This document shows, one piece after another, positions 34,323 through 46,718 of a stretch of DNA of 64,000 nt. Positions within the stretch are counted from its first letter, which is position 1. Each line of letters opens with the position of its first letter. The position numbers and the translations under genes are program-made. Below the pieces are notes generated by a model. That model was not told the DNA's origin, ran no database searches, and saw nothing but the letters and a program-made list of their open reading frames with translations. The stretch covers positions 448,001 through 512,000 of the forward strand of contig CM000432.1 of the NCBI GenBank assembly GCA_000165345.1, written 5' to 3'.

Positions 34323-35111
34323 ATGATTAAGATAATATTTATTACGCTAATATGTTTGTTAATTAAGTAAGTTAATAATTTAATTTTCCGAGTATTTAAA
34401 CATGTTCTCATTTATAGGGATACTTTTGGTTTGGAAATGCGATCAATTGGAAATTCCAAACTTGAATCGTTTTCAGTTACTTATTCCGGAAATCTTCATA
34501 AGTTAAGTGCGCATTCAAGCTTGTTTTCGAACTCACAATTTGAGTCATGCAATACTATGTGCGATGATTTTGATCCAACATGCGACTGCAACACTGCTTC
34601 TACAACAGAAACAGAAATAACTATTGATCAAGTTGAGAGTTGGATTGAAATCATTAAAAAAAATGCTGAGGCTGCTGCAAACCCTATTTTAAAGAACGAT
34701 TCTACGTCAAACACTACAGAAACAACAGATTCTAGCAATCAATATGTATGGATTGGTATTGGTGTTGGAGCCATTGTTCTTATTGGATTAATTATATTCT
34801 TCATTACAAAGTCAAGATCTAATAACAGTCAGGGTCAAGATCCCAATGCAAACTATAATATGCAGGGAGGAGCCCCAGGAATGATGCCAGGTGGAATGCC
34901 TGGTATGCCCGGTATGCCTGGAATGCCAGGTGGAATGCCAGGTGGAATGCCTGGTATGCCCGGTGGAATGCCCGGTATGCCCGGAATGCCCGGAATGCCT
35001 GGAATGCCTGGAATGCCTGGTATGCCTGGAATGCCTGGTGGTATGCCTGGAATGCCAGGCGGAATGCCTGGTGGTATGCCTGGAATGCCTGGTGGAATGC
35101 CAATGCGATAG
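34323..35111 (+). CDS. type I membrane protein: signal peptide, Cys-rich/Thr-rich ectodomain, one TM helix and a cytoplasmic (G-M-P-G)n tandem-repeat tail; 2 exons
   Basis: Exon 1 (34323..34366) encodes [16 protein letters not shown] 51-nt GTAAGT...TTTATAG intron follows at 34367..34417. Exon 2 (34418..35111) is in frame with the track ORF. The product has a Cys cluster ([18 protein letters not shown]), a T/S-rich stretch, the TM helix [19 protein letters not shown] and about 25 copies of GMPG/GGMPG. Confidence 0.55.
34876..35103 (+). repeat. imperfect tandem 9/12-nt repeat (GGAATGCCT / GGTATGCCC units) encoding (Gly-Met-Pro-Gly)n
   Basis: A direct read shows about 25 consecutive near-identical 9-12 nt units. 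Both other frames and the antisense strand stay open across it purely because of the periodicity. Confidence 0.85.
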
Positions 35112-40555: not shown

Positions 40556-41986
40556 ATGAGTGAAGATGATCAGCTACAGGCATTTGTTGACCCTTTGATT
40601 TTATTGAAGGATACTATTACAAGAGGGAAAACAGATGAAATAATTAAATTAGGAGATGAGTTTCATTTCGAGTTTTACAATTGTTCATTGAATGTTAATA
40701 CTCCCACCAGATGTAGAAATAGAAGAGGAGAGTCATTAAATTTAGATGATTTATATTTATTCATTACAGCTTCTAAAAGCAAGAAGTACACAATGAAACT
40801 TGCTCAAGATAATGGACTTAAATTCATAAATATTCTAGAAAAGAAAAATATTTTGGAATTCCTGAATGAGTTTATTGAAAAAACACAAGATTCAAGAATT
40901 CCATCTACATATTCCATTGAAGATTTAGGTAAATATGAATGTATAAATACGGAATTTTCCTTACAGCCATGCAGAATATTAGATAAAAGTAAGAAAATTT
41001 TAAATTTAAATTATCCATGGGTCGAATATAAGGTAAAAACAGATATTGAATCAATTAACGGAAAAAGCAGTGAAAATATAATACATTCAAAAGTTGCAAA
41101 TTCAATCCAATTAAAGAATAGGGATGAAATTATGTTTGTTAAAAGAAAAGTTAATTTAATTTCACAGATATATCCAATAAATATTGACTACATTTGTCAA
41201 GGAATTGATATGTATACTAGAATTAATAGCTTGCTAACATTTATGAATGAGCCTGCAAAAAGCGAGAACAAAAAAAGATCAGCCGAATCTAGTTCATATA
41301 TTCATAACGCGGAAAATAAAAAATTGAAAGACGGTAGAAGATCTAACACTGCAGATTTTGGAAAAAGAGGTTCCGAATCTTTGATAAGTACTTCAAATAT
41401 ATCAAAATCAAGGAACATACCAAAGTCAATAAATTCTCAACAAAGATCAACATTATTAGCATACCTAAATTCAAATAATCTCAACCCAATAATACTAGTT
41501 CCACCATCATCCAAGAGCCCAATTACATTAAACAATATAATTCAATTCTTACGAGATAAAGAATTTGTAGACCCTAACCTAGCAAAGAGAAACTTTGCTG
41601 GTAACGAACAAACTGTTACATTAAGTTTTGGCTCAGGAACCACTGTACAAAAGGTCACATTTCGAATCCTTGAATCCACTCTTAACTTTAGGAAAAGGGA
41701 TTGGTATTCACTAATTGCAGTGTTCCTTACTGGAGCAGAATGGCAATTGCAGTCCTTCCCATTTAAAACGATTCAAGATATATTTACAATGGTAAAGGGA
41801 TATCATATAACATATGATTCAGAGCCAATTCCTGATAACATCCGAAAATGGAATGTTGATGTCGTAAGAATTAATAGGACAAATCGCCATAACGACCTTT
41901 CAGTTTGGTTTCAATTCATGGAGTCTATTGAATCCGTTTTAGCGTCTAGTAGAGATCATTCTAAATTAGATAGAAGTAAATTATGA
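40556..41986 (+). CDS. CDC73: CDC73/parafibromin (Paf1 complex subunit)
   Basis: The C-terminal domain DWYSLIAVFLTGAEWQLQSFPF...DIFTMVKGYHITYDSEPIPDNIRKWNVDVVRINRTNRH aligns with the parafibromin C-domain ([21 protein letters not shown]...KAFHLKYDE...NVQKWDV). The N-terminus DPLILLKDTI is also CDC73-like. Confidence 0.75.
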   Translation: MSEDDQLQAFVDPLILLKDTITRGKTDEIIKLGDEFHFEFYNCSLNVNTPTRCRNRRGESLNLDDLYLFITASKSKKYTMKLAQDNGLKFINILEKKNILEFLNEFIEKTQDSRIPSTYSIEDLGKYECINTEFSLQPCRILDKSKKILNLNYPWVEYKVKTDIESINGKSSENIIHSKVANSIQLKNRDEIMFVKRKVNLISQIYPINIDYICQGIDMYTRINSLLTFMNEPAKSENKKRSAESSSYIHNAENKKLKDGRRSNTADFGKRGSESLISTSNISKSRNIPKSINSQQRSTLLAYLNSNNLNPIILVPPSSKSPITLNNIIQFLRDKEFVDPNLAKRNFAGNEQTVTLSFGSGTTVQKVTFRILESTLNFRKRDWYSLIAVFLTGAEWQLQSFPFKTIQDIFTMVKGYHITYDSEPIPDNIRKWNVDVVRINRTNRHNDLSVWFQFMESIESVLASSRDHSKLDRSKL

Positions 41987-42067
41987 ACGTTAACATTATT
42001 CGAATTAGACGATAGATTGCAACAGAAAGCAATTGATATATAATCTAATATTCAATGACTTAATAGT

Positions 42068-44249
42068 TTACCTTGAATAAATACTTCTCTTGTTTTTTCT
42101 ATTAAGTTTGTGGATTTTAAGATCATCTTTGTACGCCAGTACAACTGAATCGCTATTATTATAAAAGGTAGAACAATCCTCAACTCTACTTTCAACTTCT
42201 TTAATTGAATAAGAATATAGATTACCTCTTTTTACGGCTTCAAAGTCCCAAACTATAACAAAATTATCTATGCTTGTAACGATTTTAGTTTCCGCCCAAA
42301 ATCCTTCTGGCCCTTGGCATTGGTCAAATCTGGCAGGCGTGAAGTTAACTTCTGTAATTTTGTAATGAAACAAATCTTCGGGCTTTAAACGCAGTTTCCT
42401 GGATGGAGGTTTATTCCTCAGACTTGAAACAAATCCATTTCTACCTTCAGATCCAGAGTTTTCTTCTTGCTCAGTTACTGGATATAAGTGAATACAATTT
42501 TTTGTAGTTGCGAGAATCCAATTACCATTTCTAGTCACATCTACGGATATAATTGGAGACCCAAATGAATTAAGTAGTGTCTTTGCCTTTTTAAATTCTC
42601 CATCTTTGTTCATTGTACCATCATATAATCTTAGCTCTCCTAAGTCGTTGCCAATCAATATATGTCCATCTTTATCAGTTGCCATACTACTAAAAAGAAC
42701 ATTAGACCTATATATCTTTGAAGTAAATCTGTTGGAAGACTCCTTGATCCTACTATCCATTATAAACATTGCGCTGTTACTTAATCCCAAAAACGTTGGA
42801 ACTGGAGTGGATTGAGAATCTTTGCTTGACAGTCCTAAACAAGAAATTGGAAGTCCATTTGCATCCCAACGACGTAAAATTTTTTCATTTGTCAAATCCA
42901 TTTGATAAACATAATTAGGATCTGTTTCCGACAGAAACAACATTTGGGTTTCACAGTTGTGTAGTTGGCCTCCTACAGGAAGTACACTTTGATTTTCGAA
43001 TTCAATATTTTTAATTACAGAAATATTTCTTGCAGGAGTTCCACTAATATTATAATTGCTTCCTTCCGATTCTGTGTTTTTAAATACAGCAATTTCTGAC
43101 TTCCCATTACGCCTATTTGCCCTACCAACAAAAGTATTTTCATGTCCTATTAACATATATTTGTGATTCAAATACAATTCGTTATTTTTTGTTACTCTCC
43201 TAGGAGTTGAATAACATTCATTTTCTACTTCATCAGCTGAACAAGTGTGGTCACTTTCATTATCGCTGCATTCCCACATAATCTGATCTTTGCTGGGATT
43301 ATAGTTATCATCCAGGTCCATTTTATAACTCACTCCATAGTCTGAAACTTCGTTTTTAATGATTTCAGAAATACTTTTTCTTGGCCTTTTTTCTTCCGGA
43401 TTTACTTGATCTATGTGCTCTAAAAGTTTAGCAATAAATCCATCAATTTCTTCCTCTGAGCTATAGAAGGATTTGTTATCTTCGCCTTCATTCTGTATTC
43501 TTTTAAAATGAATTCGATATCTTTTTCTTATTTCGTCCTGATTAAACCCATAAAATTCAACAACTCTTTCACTTAATTTAGGCAAAAAAAGAATGTTATC
43601 CCCAATTATACTGGCAAACAGTACTTCGCCTTTTCCTGATAAATTCTTAATAGAAAAAATTGTGTCTTTGAAGTCTTTACTCGACAAAAGCTCGCAAATA
43701 GCATTTAGGCTTATTGGCTTCCATTCTTCAGCGTTAAAGCTCAAAATAGAATCTCTTTTCTTTTTAGTTATTGTATCATCGTGTTCATACAATTCTATTG
43801 GGATTTGATCTTTTATACTGCAGAGAGAACGAAGAGACAATGTTATATTATACGATAAGAATGAAAGAATATGTAGATCCATATTTTCAAACTCGAAAAC
43901 GAATTTTACCAAATCTTGTCCTGACCTCGTAATAATTATAAATTCACCCTGTTTATTACTATGAAAGTAATGTATATTCTTAAAATTGAATATATAATTT
44001 TCTTTTTGATCATCATTTGGATTTACACCGCTCATGATTATGTCATCTTCAATATTCATGCAGCAGGATTTAAGTACAAGCTGGTATGTCTTTCCGTTAC
44101 ATTTATACAGAGACCCTAAACAATAGTATTTAGTTCGTTTGATACTAGTTTAAACTGTCTAACTTACCATGATAGCTTTTACTAATTTTAGGGGAATCAC
44201 CAGCACTCGCAGAAAATCCAGTAAATATTCTTCGTATTAAACCACTCAT
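42068..44249 (-). CDS. VID27: VID27-like cytoplasmic protein (PH-like N-domain plus C-terminal beta-propeller), 2 exons
   Basis: Exon 1 is 44168..44249 and reads MSGLIRRIFTGFSASAGDSPKISKSYH. A 52-nt GTAAGT...TGTTTAG intron lies at 44116..44167. Exon 2 is 42068..44115. The blocks AVFKNTESEG, QMLFLSETDPNYVYQMDLTNEKILRRW and KIVTSIDNFVIVWDF align with yeast Vid27 (GVFKTDDEDD, PMLYMEDRNLILTDGENENKLYKMDIERGKVIEEW, TIVTSTGPYAISWSL). Confidence 0.65.
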
Positions 44250-44506
44250 ATGTATTCGTTGTTTTTGGCATTAAATTAATTTTCACTAAGATAATATTTT
44301 ATGCTCCAAGGAGATTAATTATTATTCTATTAACAATTTGCTATAAAATGTACCGAGGGCGGGGATAATTCATGTTTTTTTTAATTAGATCTCTTAGAAG
44401 TTCTCGAAAGTAACTGAAAGTGAATAATTAATTTTTATAAAATGAACTTAATTGGAATAGTTTAAATATTAGAAAAATAATAATTGTTTTGCGGGCAGAA
44501 AAAAAG

Positions 44507-44591
44507 TGCGTAGAATGGGATTCGAACCCATGAGAGCATACGCTCATTAGATCTTGAGTCTAACGCCTTAGACCAACTCGGCCATCCACGC
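44507..44591 (-). tRNA. tRNA-Leu(CAA): tRNA-Leu (anticodon CAA), class II with long variable arm, no intron
   Basis: The minus-strand sequence is GCGTGGATGGCCGAGTTGGTCTAAGGCGTTAGACTCAAGATCTAATGAGCGTATGCTCTCATGGGTTCGAATCCCATTCTACGCA. The 7-bp acceptor stem carries one G-U pair. The D-arm GCCGAGTTGGTCTAAGGCG is typical of tRNA-Leu. The anticodon loop is CTCAAGA, the extra arm is long, and the T-loop is TTCGAAT. The discriminator is A, and the gene is followed on its own strand by T7, a Pol III terminator. Confidence 0.9.
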
Positions 44592-44808
44592 GCCGCTACT
44601 ACCGACCGTTTATTGTAAAATATATTCAATAACAAGAAACTAAAAATCAGCCAAATTGACGAGGGGGCGTCAATAAAAGTAAATAGTGGTTTAAGTGAAG
44701 AAATGAATTAAATTGACCTAGGAGTACTATATACCTGTAATATATGTTAATTTTAGTTACATTTTGAGAAGTGGCAAATAAGGAGCTATTTATTTGGTAA
44801 AAAAAACA

Positions 44809-45329
44809 TTAAATAAAGTCTCCATACCTGCCTCTTAATTGTCTAGCTAATCTTATATCTCTTGGTAGTAATGTAACTCTTTTGGAGTGCAATGTGCATA
44901 AATATGCATCCTCGAATAACCCTTGTAAAAATGCTTCTGCTGCGCATTGAATAGCATGCAAAGCCTCTGCATTCCATCTCCACATTTCGCCATGTGGCAC
45001 AAATTTTAATGTAACCTCTCTAACAACGCGAGCAAAAGGTAGTTTAGCAATAAGTAAATCAGTTGAGGCTTGATATTTTCTAATTTCTCTTAATGCAACC
45101 GTTCCTTAAATAAATATAATTTGAACACAGAATAAATTATTTAGCTTACCTGGTCTTCTTCTATATCTCCTTGGGCTAATGGGGCTACTACTAATTGCTC
45201 TATTATTCGTTGATTGGTGAAGAATAGGAGTCTAGAGAACTAATGAATATGTTGCATAAATGGAATTAATCAACTTACTTTTGACGGATATTTTGCAATT
45301 CGCTTGCTTGAAGTTTTAGAACGAGCCAT
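44809..45329 (-). CDS. cenH3: centromeric-type histone H3 variant (CenH3/CENP-A-like), 3 exons
   Basis: The exons are 45279..45329, 45150..45231 and 44809..45104. The introns are 45232..45278 (GTAAGT...TCTCTAG) and 45105..45149 (GTAAGC...TTTAAG). The product is [136 protein letters not shown].... It has an H3 histone fold with a divergent N-tail and a lengthened loop 1, as in CenH3. Confidence 0.8.
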
Positions 45330-45745
45330 AATCAATGAACCAATAGAAATTACTATTGAAGCCGTTAAAACAACGACTGCAATAGTAATAATTGTTAATT
45401 ATCAGCTCTAGACTAATTATTTAGTATTACTTGAAATATCTATTTATTAATTCCAGAAAAATATATCGTTTTCCAAATGAAGCCCGTTTCATGCATGAAT
45501 AATATCTTAATTAAACAACCAAAATATTCAAAAAAAATTATTCTTTTTAAGAAAGAAATTAAGTTTAATATCTAATTTTTTTTTATAAAAAAACTTTCAC
45601 ATGTATAAATTTATTTTATATTCTTTGCAAATTATTTGGCTTTGTCGTCTGTCCATCTAGTTAGTATATATTTCTTTTAAATGTGGGTAATGATTTGGCG
45701 CTGGCGGCACTGCTGCTTTTTTTTAAGCTTAAACTTCTAACATTT

Positions 45746-46718
45746 ATGTTAAAAATAATAGAAAGCAAATCACATGCTCTTACACACAAGATAATACACT
45801 CTGGCTTGTTGCTTATTTCAATAAGTATTGATCACGGAGAAGAAAGTAAATTCTCAAAGTGGAAATGTGCTCCTAAACTTTACTTTATTATCCCAAGAAT
45901 AGGTTATTTATTATCTTTGATTGACACTATTCAGGACTATTACGCTTCTATTGATAAGGAATTTTATAATTTAATTGAAAACACTTTCTCTTGGTTTGAG
46001 TACGATGGTTTGGTCATAAATAGGTAATTTATTTTTTAATAATTACATTAAATTGTATCCTTTCTAAGCCAATTCCCTGTAGGAATATTATTTGATAAGT
46101 ATCACAAAAGCAATGATAGCGTTTCATTCAACATTAAATTGGTTCTTCAATACAATAATAGTAATAAAAATAATCGGAAAGCTCCTTTTTTTTCTGAAGA
46201 AAACTCAGTATTTAATAATAACTTGATTAAGATTATTACAAATAACATTAAGCTATCTCAAACTGTAATGTTTGGAGATTGCAGAAAACTTCAAATGATG
46301 AATAAGAAAGATTACAATGAACTATTTGATTCTATATACTCTCTCTCCAAGACAACAGGTGAATACGAGAAGATAATTCATCGATTGTTCGGGTCAGCAA
46401 ATGAAATATATTTCAATACTAAGTAAGTTCTTCAGTATTTAAGCTTTAATAATTTAAAAAAAAAAAATTAGGAATATTCCGGTAAAAATTCACGTTAAGA
46501 ACGAATCATTTTTGAGATCATTCAAAAAAGATATTAACAATCAACTAATTGAAATAAAAGATATTCTAAACCATTTCAAATTTGAAACTAATGTGAGCTT
46601 AGATTCAAATAAAGTAATTTTTCATGGGGTCGCACTACCATTAAATACGCCATTAATATTTTTAACAATATTTTGCCCTTATATTGATGGGATTGTTCAA
46701 TTAGTTATTAAAGATTAA
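45746..46718 (+). CDS. ATG5: autophagy protein ATG5, 3 exons
   Basis: The exons are 45746..46023, 46069..46422 and 46472..46718. The donors are GTAATT and GTAAGT, and the acceptors are TCTAAG and AATTAG. The product aligns with human ATG5 throughout. IHSGLLLISISIDHGE aligns with VWFGRIPTCFTLYQDE, PKLYFIIPRIGYL with PYYLLLPRVSYL, and SWFEYDGLVIN/SQFPVGILFD with [21 protein letters not shown]. In addition, VIFHGVALPLNTPLIFL aligns with VMIHGIEPMLETPLQWL. The track splits it into three TTG/GTG-started ORFs. Confidence 0.7.

Follow-up and report, generated by a model that had tools for sequence, protein, structure and literature searches.

CenH3 offers a handle for locating centromeres, none of which is sequence-defined in Cryptosporidium, an important diarrhoeal gut pathogen. 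Does the H3-like gene at 45329..44809 on the minus strand of the 64,000-nucleotide stretch of DNA analysed here (the window) encode this histone, and how would its product mark chromosomes? A preliminary description of the stretch had called the gene CenH3/CENP-A, a call upheld by protein identity, diagnostic substitutions, a longer loop 1, a search with the segment from loop 1 to the C-terminus and a tree: it is very probably cgd4_2030 of Cryptosporidium parvum, a single-copy gene on chromosome 4 for CenH3, the orthologue of CENP-A and Cse4. The gene is already known, having been annotated, tagged and mapped by CUT&RUN, and finding it again therefore brings nothing new. What we add is a corrected gene anatomy with the neighbouring tRNA in tandem, comparative proof of both introns, a histone fold that is invariant across intestinal Cryptosporidium species, and the conclusion that punctate localisation is unusable as a test of CenH3 identity in C. 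parvum.

Results

Gene structure and identity of the locus

The gene and its upstream region comprise the following features (basis in brackets).

45330..45745, no strand: intergenic region shared with the divergent ATG5 gene, presumed CenH3 promoter (ATG5 exon match and synteny)
44809..45329, minus strand: CenH3 gene cgd4_2030 from ATG to stop, three exons, 142 aa (splice model and translation)
45279..45329, minus strand: exon 1, with a phase 0 donor (splice model)
45232..45278, minus strand: intron 1, 47 nt, GTAAGT...TCTCTAG, at a position common to other species (splice model)
45150..45231, minus strand: exon 2, the variable middle of the N-terminal tail followed by a conserved RRYRRRP-G block (splice model and species comparison)
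45105..45149, minus strand: intron 2, 45 nt, GTAAGC...TTTAAG, phase 1, within the Gly codon of PG/TVAL (splice model)
44809..45104, minus strand: exon 3, the entire histone-fold domain (end of alphaN, alpha1, longer loop 1, alpha2, alpha3), the C-tail RGRYGDFI and the stop (alignment and structure search)

An ATG at 45329 and a stop codon at 44809-44811 delimit an in-frame CDS of 429 nt, and its 142-aa product contains every peptide quoted in the preliminary description, whose H3-type gene with two introns is thereby borne out. Both short spliceosomal introns have to be spliced out to yield this protein. An alternative acceptor for intron 1 (TTAG, 8 nt upstream) was rejected because it breaks the reading frame. 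The two intron positions are kept in five species (C. parvum, C. felis, C. bovis, C. ubiquitum and a gastric species), but the lengths and sequences of the introns are not. Two introns had been thought unusual for a histone gene; introns are, however, normal in variant histone genes, and ~10.8% of C. parvum genes bear them, these genes averaging 2.6 exons (PMC4637869). The old Iowa II partial model (XP_625797.1/EAK87944.1), of 98 aa, corresponds to exon 3 alone, whereas current models and the window agree on 142 aa and two introns.

On the upstream side, exon 1 of ATG5 (45746-46027) has a match to Pfam ATG5_UblA, and the divergent ATG5/CenH3 arrangement is common to four other Cryptosporidium species. 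As a candidate regulatory element in the intergenic region between the two genes we considered an E2F-like motif (TTTSSCGC or GGCGCC), present in C. parvum as GCGCCAAA at -372, and dropped it since no position of such a motif in this region was conserved across the five species.

The 142-aa product is 100% identical to QOY42241.1, WKS77541.1 and WRK31784.1, all named "Centromeric histone h3-like protein [C. parvum]". Assignment to cgd4_2030 was fixed through the accession order of neighbouring genes and the tag CPHLJ_4g2020; a literature search with neighbouring locus tags gave no match. Four cgd4_2030 oligonucleotides (three primers and a guide RNA) listed in a 2025-26 preprint (bioRxiv 10.1101/2025.09.30.679541) have unique, exact matches in the window, with a primer falling in exon 2 (45188-45211) and the guide RNA in the spacer between CenH3 and the tRNA (44717-44739). 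Read against the sequence, the CDS forward primer of the preprint equals the first 20 bases of our gene model, and its CDS primers, applied there to cDNA, coincide with the opening and closing codons; its 5'UTR primer (3HA linker), placed by eye, lies at ~45493-45532, ~200 bp upstream of the ATG. According to the same source, the cgd4_2030 CDS was amplified from cDNA and the protein epitope-tagged as CENH3, and the genome holds separate canonical H3 genes, cgd3_2540 and cgd4_3220, whose products stain differently. A tblastn search of the 64-kb window for a second H3-like sequence returned exon 3 only.

Comparison of C. parvum with C. felis gave 47 synonymous and 0 nonsynonymous differences in exon 3, and 7 and 0, respectively, in exon 1. 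The histone fold is invariant among the intestinal Cryptosporidium species, and the C-tail ..RGRYGDFI throughout the genus. CenH3 is often fast-evolving, and the invariant Cryptosporidium fold stands in contrast to this. Altogether, the intron positions, the 47:0 substitution pattern, and the cDNA and tagging data of the preprint indicate that the gene is real, expressed and constrained.

Histone fold, diagnostic residues and phylogeny

The product matches the Pfam Histone family (PF00125) far beyond chance (E = 1.8e-35; score 122 bits, cut-off 26.4). In phmmer searches it aligned over its full length with solved H3 and CENP-A chains (E down to 5.5e-37), and sequence matches to such chains at ~1e-37 settle the fold. 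In the histone-variant literature, CenH3 is told from H3 by replacement of the H3-invariant residues Q68, F84 and T107. These align with A, W and A in the C. parvum protein; nearly all aligned CenH3s have the same or similar states, while H3 of human and yeast retains the Q, F and T. Loop 1, measured between the columns of H3 E73 and R83, spans 12 residues compared with 9 in H3, 11 in human CENP-A and 12 in Cse4, so that the lengthening noted earlier amounts to three residues relative to H3. The C-terminal extension noted with it is also three residues (RGRYGDFI, as against RGERA in H3), and is hydrophobic. The CENP-A state is found at 12 of the 35 columns that distinguish human H3.1 from CENP-A, 9 of these 12 being in loop 1 or alpha2. 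With residues 76-142 (loop 1 to C-terminus) as the query, the top 12 solved chains were all of CENP-A sequence (63-68 bits), compared to 60 bits for Cse4 and 56-58 bits for canonical H3, a modest CENP-A margin over H3 of ~6-10 bits. Sampled hits outside Cryptosporidium were of the CenH3 type, even those labelled 'histone H3'.

The N-terminal tail starts ARSKTSSKR, retaining R2 and K4 and with S in place of T3; it runs for 43 residues before PGTVAL, precisely as many as the H3 tail has, and its phmmer alignment to the latter begins at residue 2. Between residues 6 and 38 it bears no resemblance to the tail of H3, and it lacks the K9, K27 and K36 contexts. The tail had been described as unrelated to ARTKQTARKS and devoid of K4, K9 and K27 contexts, which is correct for K9 and K27 but overstated for the ARSK start with its R2 and K4, and for a tail of 43 residues. 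Since many protist CenH3-type hits likewise begin MARTK or MARSK, we do not count this H3-like start against CenH3 membership. Relative to canonical H3/H3.3, the tail keeps the first-four-residue start (ARSK vs ARTK) and the length only, none of Q68, F84 and T107 is retained, and loop 1 has three extra residues.

We built a neighbour-joining tree from 98 histone-fold columns (Kimura distances, 200 bootstraps) with no more than three canonical H3 sequences, entered by hand from established knowledge and with the C. parvum H3 genes left out, and with a CenH3 set made up of the query's own best hits. On this sampling, canonical H3 separated from all the rest, including the cgd4_2030 product, with 96.5% bootstrap support, and the phylogenetic check suggested in the preliminary description hence places the protein outside canonical H3. 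In the same tree, the Cryptosporidium sequences grouped with CSE4 of the apicomplexan Cardiosporidium (73%). The preprint's own tree agrees in placing CENH3 with CenH3s and apart from H3 (bioRxiv 10.1101/2025.09.30.679541).

Localisation and centromere organisation

As described in the preprint, tagged CENH3 is diffuse, not punctate, and CUT&RUN gives ~400 small CENH3 sites over all eight chromosomes, read by its authors as holocentric or polycentric organisation (bioRxiv 10.1101/2025.09.30.679541). The peaks are many and low, and mostly inside genes; depth was ~3x (samples about 1.5-6.6x), with variable genome coverage. The sections consulted report neither kinetochore co-localisation nor a depletion phenotype. 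Given the diffuse localisation and the many low peaks, a centromere-defining role for the protein in C. parvum remains putative. Chromosome-wide rather than punctate localisation had been proposed as grounds for refuting the CenH3 call; exactly such a pattern, with its ~400 sites, has now been published and interpreted as holocentricity, which makes this criterion unsafe and the refutation invalid.

Three of the published CENH3 sites lie within the window. A clustering of sites near the tagged gene was considered and rejected: three sites in 64 kb is the genome average (~405 sites per 9.1 Mb), and we hence claim no enrichment near the CenH3 gene. GA-rich motifs are the claimed signature of CENH3 sites in the preprint (bioRxiv 10.1101/2025.09.30.679541), and no GA-rich runs were found at the three sites within the window with a purine-run measure that is too crude to contradict it.

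A more novel reading, though less likely than not, is that Cryptosporidium CenH3 may no longer mark one discrete centromere per chromosome but hundreds of short sites, many of them intragenic, and that the frozen fold (0 nonsynonymous against 47 synonymous differences in exon 3) may reflect constraints of such dispersed deposition. Holocentricity itself was put forward by the preprint; the new part would be a speculative link to the constancy of the sequence and to the H3-length ARSK tail.

It is on balance unlikely that the protein is instead CenH3 by descent in a monocentric C. parvum, acting as in Toxoplasma and Plasmodium at one regional centromere per chromosome, with the diffuse signal and ~400 sites owed to the tag, the level of expression or noise in shallow CUT&RUN data. 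A histone fold and C-tail that are conventional for CenH3, the low depth (~1.5-6.6x) and variable coverage of the data, and the mostly coding location of the sites are all consistent with such an account, as are the three sites in the window without GA-rich runs by our crude measure, and the authors of the preprint themselves list alternative explanations. Against it, the diffuse pattern persisted whether the tag was C-terminal 3HA, smHA or one at the N-terminus of a second copy, and a T. gondii control gave single peaks under an identical protocol. Moreover, according to the preprint, CENH3 sites correlate with H3K9me3 and lack H3K4me3, and this compact genome is not known to contain gene-poor regions that could be candidate centromeres.

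The tRNA-Leu neighbour and synteny

Downstream of the stop codon, the window contains the following features.

44592..44808, minus strand: spacer of 217 bp, the CenH3 3' UTR region and the tRNA upstream region (sequence)
44507..44591, minus strand: tRNA-Leu(CAA), class II (ARAGORN; Rfam RF00005)
44499..44505, minus strand: T7 run, presumed Pol III terminator, with a single C between the tRNA discriminator and T7 (sequence reading)

ARAGORN, a match to the whole of Rfam RF00005 in which a long variable arm appears as an insertion (60.6 bits; gathering score 29), and reading of the sequence confirmed the class II tRNA-Leu(CAA) with its T7 run that had been described, and its 5' end is indeed 217 bp from the CenH3 stop. 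The two genes had been called convergent, but ARAGORN and Rfam put the tRNA on the minus strand like CenH3, and it therefore lies downstream in tandem. Sequences like box A (GGCCGAGTTGG) and box B (GGTTCGAATCC), whose consensus is general knowledge, are visible in the tRNA gene. T-runs are known as Pol III terminators, and a T5 replaces the T7 in other Cryptosporidium species. Lying between CenH3 and VID27, the tRNA gene would be transcribed by Pol III as a unit of its own, independent of CenH3, from internal promoter elements to a T-run terminator. In the spacer, an AATAAA occurs ~15 nt past the CenH3 stop, and conservation between species is confined to one short block, ACAGGTATATAG. The tRNA-Leu itself is virtually identical in five Cryptosporidium species, and in all five it lies on the same strand as CenH3 and downstream of it.

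CenH3 and the tRNA most probably lie next to each other simply because the genome is very compact and highly syntenic. Collinearity between Cryptosporidium species has been reported, so that conserved neighbourhoods are to be expected (PMC4637869). That the tRNA is functionally coupled to CenH3, whether by forming a Pol III barrier or insulator or by aiding transcription termination between CenH3 and VID27, appears very unlikely. Such coupling would fit the order and orientation shared by five Cryptosporidium species (ATG5 pointing away from CenH3, then CenH3, tRNA-Leu(CAA) and VID27 all in the opposite direction), and a stop-to-tRNA gap that stays at 213-218 bp in four intestinal species despite a diverged spacer and varying intron lengths. 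The gap, however, is 1,333 bp in the gastric species, Cardiosporidium CenH3 has no tRNA within 3 kb downstream, and 45 tRNA genes among ~3,900 genes (PMC4637869) would by our own estimate leave ~2% of genes with a tRNA neighbour by chance. Moreover, parasites with the tagging cassette placed between CenH3 and the tRNA were viable, according to the preprint (bioRxiv 10.1101/2025.09.30.679541).

Discussion

We consider it extremely unlikely that the protein is an H3 variant, of the replacement type or specific to the lineage, that acts in chromatin generally and to which the CenH3 label was carried over by similarity, since the diffuse nuclear staining seen in the preprint, the tail of H3 length with its ARSK start, the extreme conservation of the fold between species, as in canonical histones, and the 60% identity to human H3 over the histone fold are set against CenH3-ward changes at all of Q68, F84 and T107, the three added loop 1 residues, a Cse4-like hydrophobic C-tail, CENP-A ranking above H3 in the search from loop 1 to the C-terminus, the 96.5% bootstrap split from canonical H3, the many protist CenH3s that also begin MARTK or MARSK, and the presence of two ordinary H3 genes with products that stain differently.

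As the CenH3 of C. parvum, and by analogy with CENP-A and Cse4 nucleosomes, the protein would take the place of H3 in some of the nucleosomes. The CENP-A targeting domain, formed by loop 1 and alpha2, would distinguish it from H3 for a dedicated deposition pathway, and its hydrophobic C-tail (..RGRYGDFI, cf. ..RGQFI in Cse4) would, from its sequence, offer a docking surface for CENP-C. Together, H3 replacement, targeting domain and C-tail would mark the sites of kinetochore assembly.

Comparison with known systems

Human CENP-A shares with the C. parvum protein the H3-type histone fold, in which 61% of residues are identical, as well as a longer loop 1, W at F84, A at T107 and the absence of Q68, besides the alpha2 motif AEAFL..LFEDAYL.TLH and a 6-residue extension after RG. 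They differ in that loop 1 of human CENP-A is two residues longer than that of H3 rather than three, its C-tail ends in LEEGLG rather than RYGDFI, and the tails at the N-terminus are unrelated, that of C. parvum being H3-like in length and first residues; human CENP-A is also focal, whereas the C. parvum protein is reported as diffuse in the preprint.

Centromeres are of the point or regional type in S. cerevisiae and S. pombe. Their CenH3s, Cse4 and Cnp1, show 53% and 60% identity, respectively, to the C. parvum protein over the histone fold, and have W at F84, with Q68 replaced by A in Cse4, as in C. parvum, or by S in Cnp1. Cnp1 is among the best solved-structure matches. Cse4 has the same three-residue lengthening of loop 1 and a hydrophobic ..FI end (RGQFI, compared to RGRYGDFI), but unlike the C. 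parvum protein it keeps T107 and has a long, essential N-terminal domain of ~130 residues.

The closest named apicomplexan relative among those compared is Cardiosporidium CSE4 P0017 (68% identity over the histone fold), with the same MARSK start, equal loop 1 length and the QCAAEA and EDAYLC motifs in common. CenH3 of T. gondii and P. falciparum, known here from the literature, is focal, at one regional centromere per chromosome, unlike that of C. parvum (bioRxiv 10.1101/2025.09.30.679541).

Canonical H3/H3.3, finally, has the fold (60% identity), a 43-residue tail and a closely similar start (ARTK, against ARSK) in common with the C. parvum protein, which departs from it in lacking the K9/K27/K36 contexts, in its replaced Q68, F84 and T107, in a loop 1 and a C-tail that are each three residues longer, and in its separate position in the tree.

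The locus is the annotated centromeric H3 gene of C. parvum

The window is AT-rich (G+C ~30%), and its centromeric-type histone gene, the adjoining tRNA gene and the published oligonucleotides that fall on them are arranged as follows.

45329 (ATG) to 44811-44809 (TAA), minus strand: CenH3 gene, in-frame 429-nt CDS, 142-aa product
45278-45232, minus strand: CenH3 intron 1, 47 nt, GTAAGT...TAG
45149-45105, minus strand: CenH3 intron 2, 45 nt, GTAAGC...AAG
44591-44507, minus strand: tRNA-Leu(CAA) with a long variable arm (ARAGORN and Rfam, 60.6 bits)
45188-45211 and 44812-44831: published 5' homology primers
44717-44739: published guide RNA with PAM
44573-44612: published 3' arm primer, extending into the tRNA gene

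The 142-aa product matches the Pfam Histone family (E = 1.8e-35) and is identical, letter for letter, to GenBank entries QOY42241.1, WKS77541.1 and WRK31784.1, which lie on contigs of ~1.1 Mb and are labelled 'Centromeric histone h3-like protein [Cryptosporidium parvum]'. Its 90% cluster holds orthologues from C. hominis, C. meleagridis, C. canis, C. felis, C. ubiquitum, C. bovis, C. xiaoi, C. ryanae and a chipmunk genotype. The first Iowa II model (XP_625797.1), a partial of 98 aa, equals exon 3 only. The downstream neighbour is VID27 (XP_625796.1, tag 'CPHLJ_4g2020') and the gene after it CDC73 (EAK87881.1); the histone gene is therefore cgd4_2030, taken as C. parvum CENH3 by Kimball et al. 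(bioRxiv 10.1101/2025.09.30.679541). Four oligonucleotides in Table S1 of that preprint (three primers and the guide RNA) have exact and unique matches in the window, and its CDS primers, applied to cDNA, have the same ATG and last codon as the present gene model. The gene cgd4_2030 is already known, annotated and experimentally handled.

Variant histone genes usually have introns, those without being the replication-dependent canonical genes. The preliminary description correctly reported two introns but considered them unusual for a histone gene; since ~10.8% of C. parvum genes have introns, with a mean of 2.6 exons each (PMC4637869), a three-exon gene belongs to a minority but is not odd.

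Sequence comparisons separate the protein from canonical H3

We aligned the product with human H3.1 and H3.3, yeast H3, human CENP-A, S. pombe Cnp1, Cse4 residues 130-229 (from PDB 6uph_A) and 24 database hits; for human and yeast H3, CENP-A and Cnp1, well-established sequences were used, with partial cross-checks of H3.1 and of the CENP-A targeting domain against the structure matches. Three residues constant in canonical H3 are replaced in C. parvum (Q68 by A, F84 by W and T107 by A), and the interval from the end of α1 through loop 1 has 12 residues compared to nine in H3. The CENP-A state is present in 12 of the 35 histone-fold columns that differ between human H3.1 and CENP-A, nine of these 12 being in loop 1 or α2. 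Against solved structures, residues 76-142 as sole query retrieved CENP-A-bearing chains in the top twelve places (63-68 bits), with Cse4 at 60 bits and canonical H3 at 56-58 bits, while the full-length query placed H3/CENP-A chimeras and S. pombe Cnp1 on top.

In a neighbour-joining tree (98 histone-fold columns, 200 bootstraps), the canonical H3 set, comprising three sequences, split from all others, a CenH3 set drawn from the query's own hits, in 96.5% of bootstraps. Cryptosporidium CenH3 proteins formed a 100% clade, grouped at 73% with CSE4 of the apicomplexan Cardiosporidium and one 'fly' protein. A tree in the preprint that includes the C. parvum H3 genes cgd3_2540 and cgd4_3220 is reported there to lead to the same conclusion (bioRxiv 10.1101/2025.09.30.679541). 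The CenH3/CENP-A assignment of the preliminary description is thus upheld by the three replaced residues, the longer loop 1, the ranking of CENP-A above H3 among structures and the tree split. Its description of the N-tail as unrelated to H3 holds only in part: the K9 and K27 contexts are missing, but the tail equals that of H3 in length, with exactly 43 residues ahead of PGTVAL, and begins ARSKTSSKR, compared to ARTKQTARK in H3, with R2 and K4 kept.

Matches from outside Cryptosporidium sampled from the large protein search were of CenH3 type regardless of label. Several plant 'hypothetical proteins' (hits P0003-P0009 and others) of 180-250 aa (179-248 aa for the entries near the top), longer than a single histone, outrank true CenH3s in that search. 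They list several overlapping histone-fold Pfam families and, judged by this and their length, resemble gene models that were fused or wrongly merged, with inflated scores; they are not close relatives. The fly protein (P0053, 'Uncharacterized protein LOC129618338 [Condylostylus longicornis]'), which groups with apicomplexan CenH3s, lies on a 17.6-kb contig and probably stems from a parasite of the Apicomplexa, for instance a gregarine, contaminating the fly assembly.

The histone fold is strongly conserved across Cryptosporidium

Orthologous loci from C. felis, C. bovis, C. ubiquitum and a gastric species were compared with that of C. parvum. In each of the five species the two introns have GT..AG ends and interrupt the coding sequence at identical codons; they vary freely in length and sequence, and exon differences are mostly at third codon positions. 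By the Nei-Gojobori method, exon 3 of C. parvum has 47 synonymous and no nonsynonymous differences from C. felis, 38 and none from C. ubiquitum, and 46 and one from C. bovis, the synonymous sites being saturated in these comparisons. The fold and C-tail (window 44812-45104; proteins P0001 and P0122-P0130) are identical in the intestinal species examined, apart from one I/V exception in C. bovis, and variation among these species is confined to tail residues 11-39, mostly 24-39. These comparisons prove that the gene is functional and spliced, and altogether C. parvum is shown to have a real CenH3-type gene under constraint. Judged from these sequences, Cryptosporidium CenH3 is under more constraint than many CenH3s, unusually strong for this class; the available text of the preprint makes no mention of constraint on the histone fold (bioRxiv 10.1101/2025.09.30.679541).

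The adjacent tRNA gene is a conserved neighbour

The tRNA-Leu(CAA) gene is the only tRNA gene in the whole window according to both ARAGORN and Rfam, and is followed 3' by one C and then seven T. The initially measured distance of 217 bp from the CenH3 stop to the 5' end of the tRNA is correct, but the two genes, described as convergent, are both on the minus strand, in tandem. The order and orientation of ATG5 (divergent), CenH3, tRNA-Leu(CAA), VID27 and CDC73 are kept in all five Cryptosporidium species, with a nearly identical tRNA always downstream of CenH3 on the same strand. The interval measures 1,333 bp in the gastric species, compared to 213-218 bp in the four intestinal ones. No tRNA adjoins CenH3 in the Cardiosporidium locus. 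Since Cryptosporidium genomes are reported to be collinear, with 45 tRNA genes among ~3,900 genes (PMC4637869), we regard this adjacency as a fact of the neighbourhood and not as a functional unit.

The spacer is unconserved between species except for a short ACAGGTATATAG block. This sole conserved part, TTACAGGTATATAG (window 44717-44740, minus strand, ~70 nt past the CenH3 stop), is shared by C. parvum, C. ubiquitum and C. bovis, with partial retention in C. felis. This block may act in 3'-end processing or as an element of the UTR, and is also the target site of the published guide RNA. Directly after the tRNA T-run, ~240 bp upstream of the VID27 start, is a conserved G+C-rich block (window 44489-44498, minus strand; CTGCCCGC in C. 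parvum, TGCCCCGC in three other species) that may be a VID27 promoter element.

The old Iowa II model gives VID27 (cgd4_2020) a length of 663 aa, compared to 709-710 aa in newer annotations. The additional N-terminal residues would come from a short upstream ORF (MSGLIRRIFTGFSASAGDSPK...) that precedes an apparent intron; the tRNA would then lie within the 559 bp that separate the stop codon of CenH3 from the ATG of VID27.

44249-44145, minus strand: short upstream ORF of VID27, followed by the apparent intron
44059-42068, minus strand: VID27

Published CENH3 sites and the localisation pattern

Three published CENH3 CUT&RUN sites fall in the window. They were placed through GCA_048859185.1 (one mismatch in 3431 bp), with chr4 coordinate = 901086 minus window coordinate, assuming that the IOWA-CDC reference of the preprint is collinear with the present assembly; for the first two sites, the genes named in the preprint agree with this placement.

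41998-42398: Chr4 858688-859088, in cgd4_2020
41086-41486: Chr4 859600-860000, in cgd4_2010
34488-34888: Chr4 866198-866598, 'intergenic' as published
34431-35111, plus strand: 226-aa ORF with a hydrophobic segment and a C-terminal run of ~25 GMP/GGMP repeats

The first two sites lie on either side of the point where VID27 and CDC73 converge with their 3' ends, at 2.4-3.7 kb from CENH3 itself, and the 'intergenic' one falls within the 226-aa ORF, whose GMP/GGMP run is encoded by a 9-nt tandem repeat, TGGAATGCC, at 34892-35101. Three sites per 64 kb equal the genome average, and, by a crude measure, none of the three contains GA-rich runs.

According to the preprint, tagged CENH3 shows a diffuse and not a punctate localisation. 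CENH3 CUT&RUN, at a sample depth of only ~1.5-6.6x, yielded 400-bp windows on all chromosomes, 347 of them coding and 58 intergenic, correlated with H3K9me3 and depleted of H3K4me3, which its authors read, with listed caveats, as holocentric or polycentric (bioRxiv 10.1101/2025.09.30.679541). A chromosome-wide rather than punctate distribution had been proposed beforehand as evidence against CenH3. As this pattern has already been found by experiment without overturning the assignment, it is not a valid criterion in C. parvum.

Comparison with CENP-A and Cse4

By analogy with CENP-A and Cse4, the C. parvum protein would take the place of H3 in particular nucleosomes, with loop 1 and α2 providing a deposition route of its own. 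From the end of α1 through loop 1, it matches Cse4 in length (12 residues) and exceeds human CENP-A (11 residues) by one. The same analogy would have CENP-C, which apicomplexans possess (PMC7340582; PMC8822342), dock on the hydrophobic C-tail, and, by the title of Verma & Surolia (2013), the P. falciparum protein has a C-terminus essential for centromere function. After the conserved RG, this tail reads RYGDFI in C. parvum, compared to ERA in H3, LEEGLG in CENP-A and QFI in Cse4.
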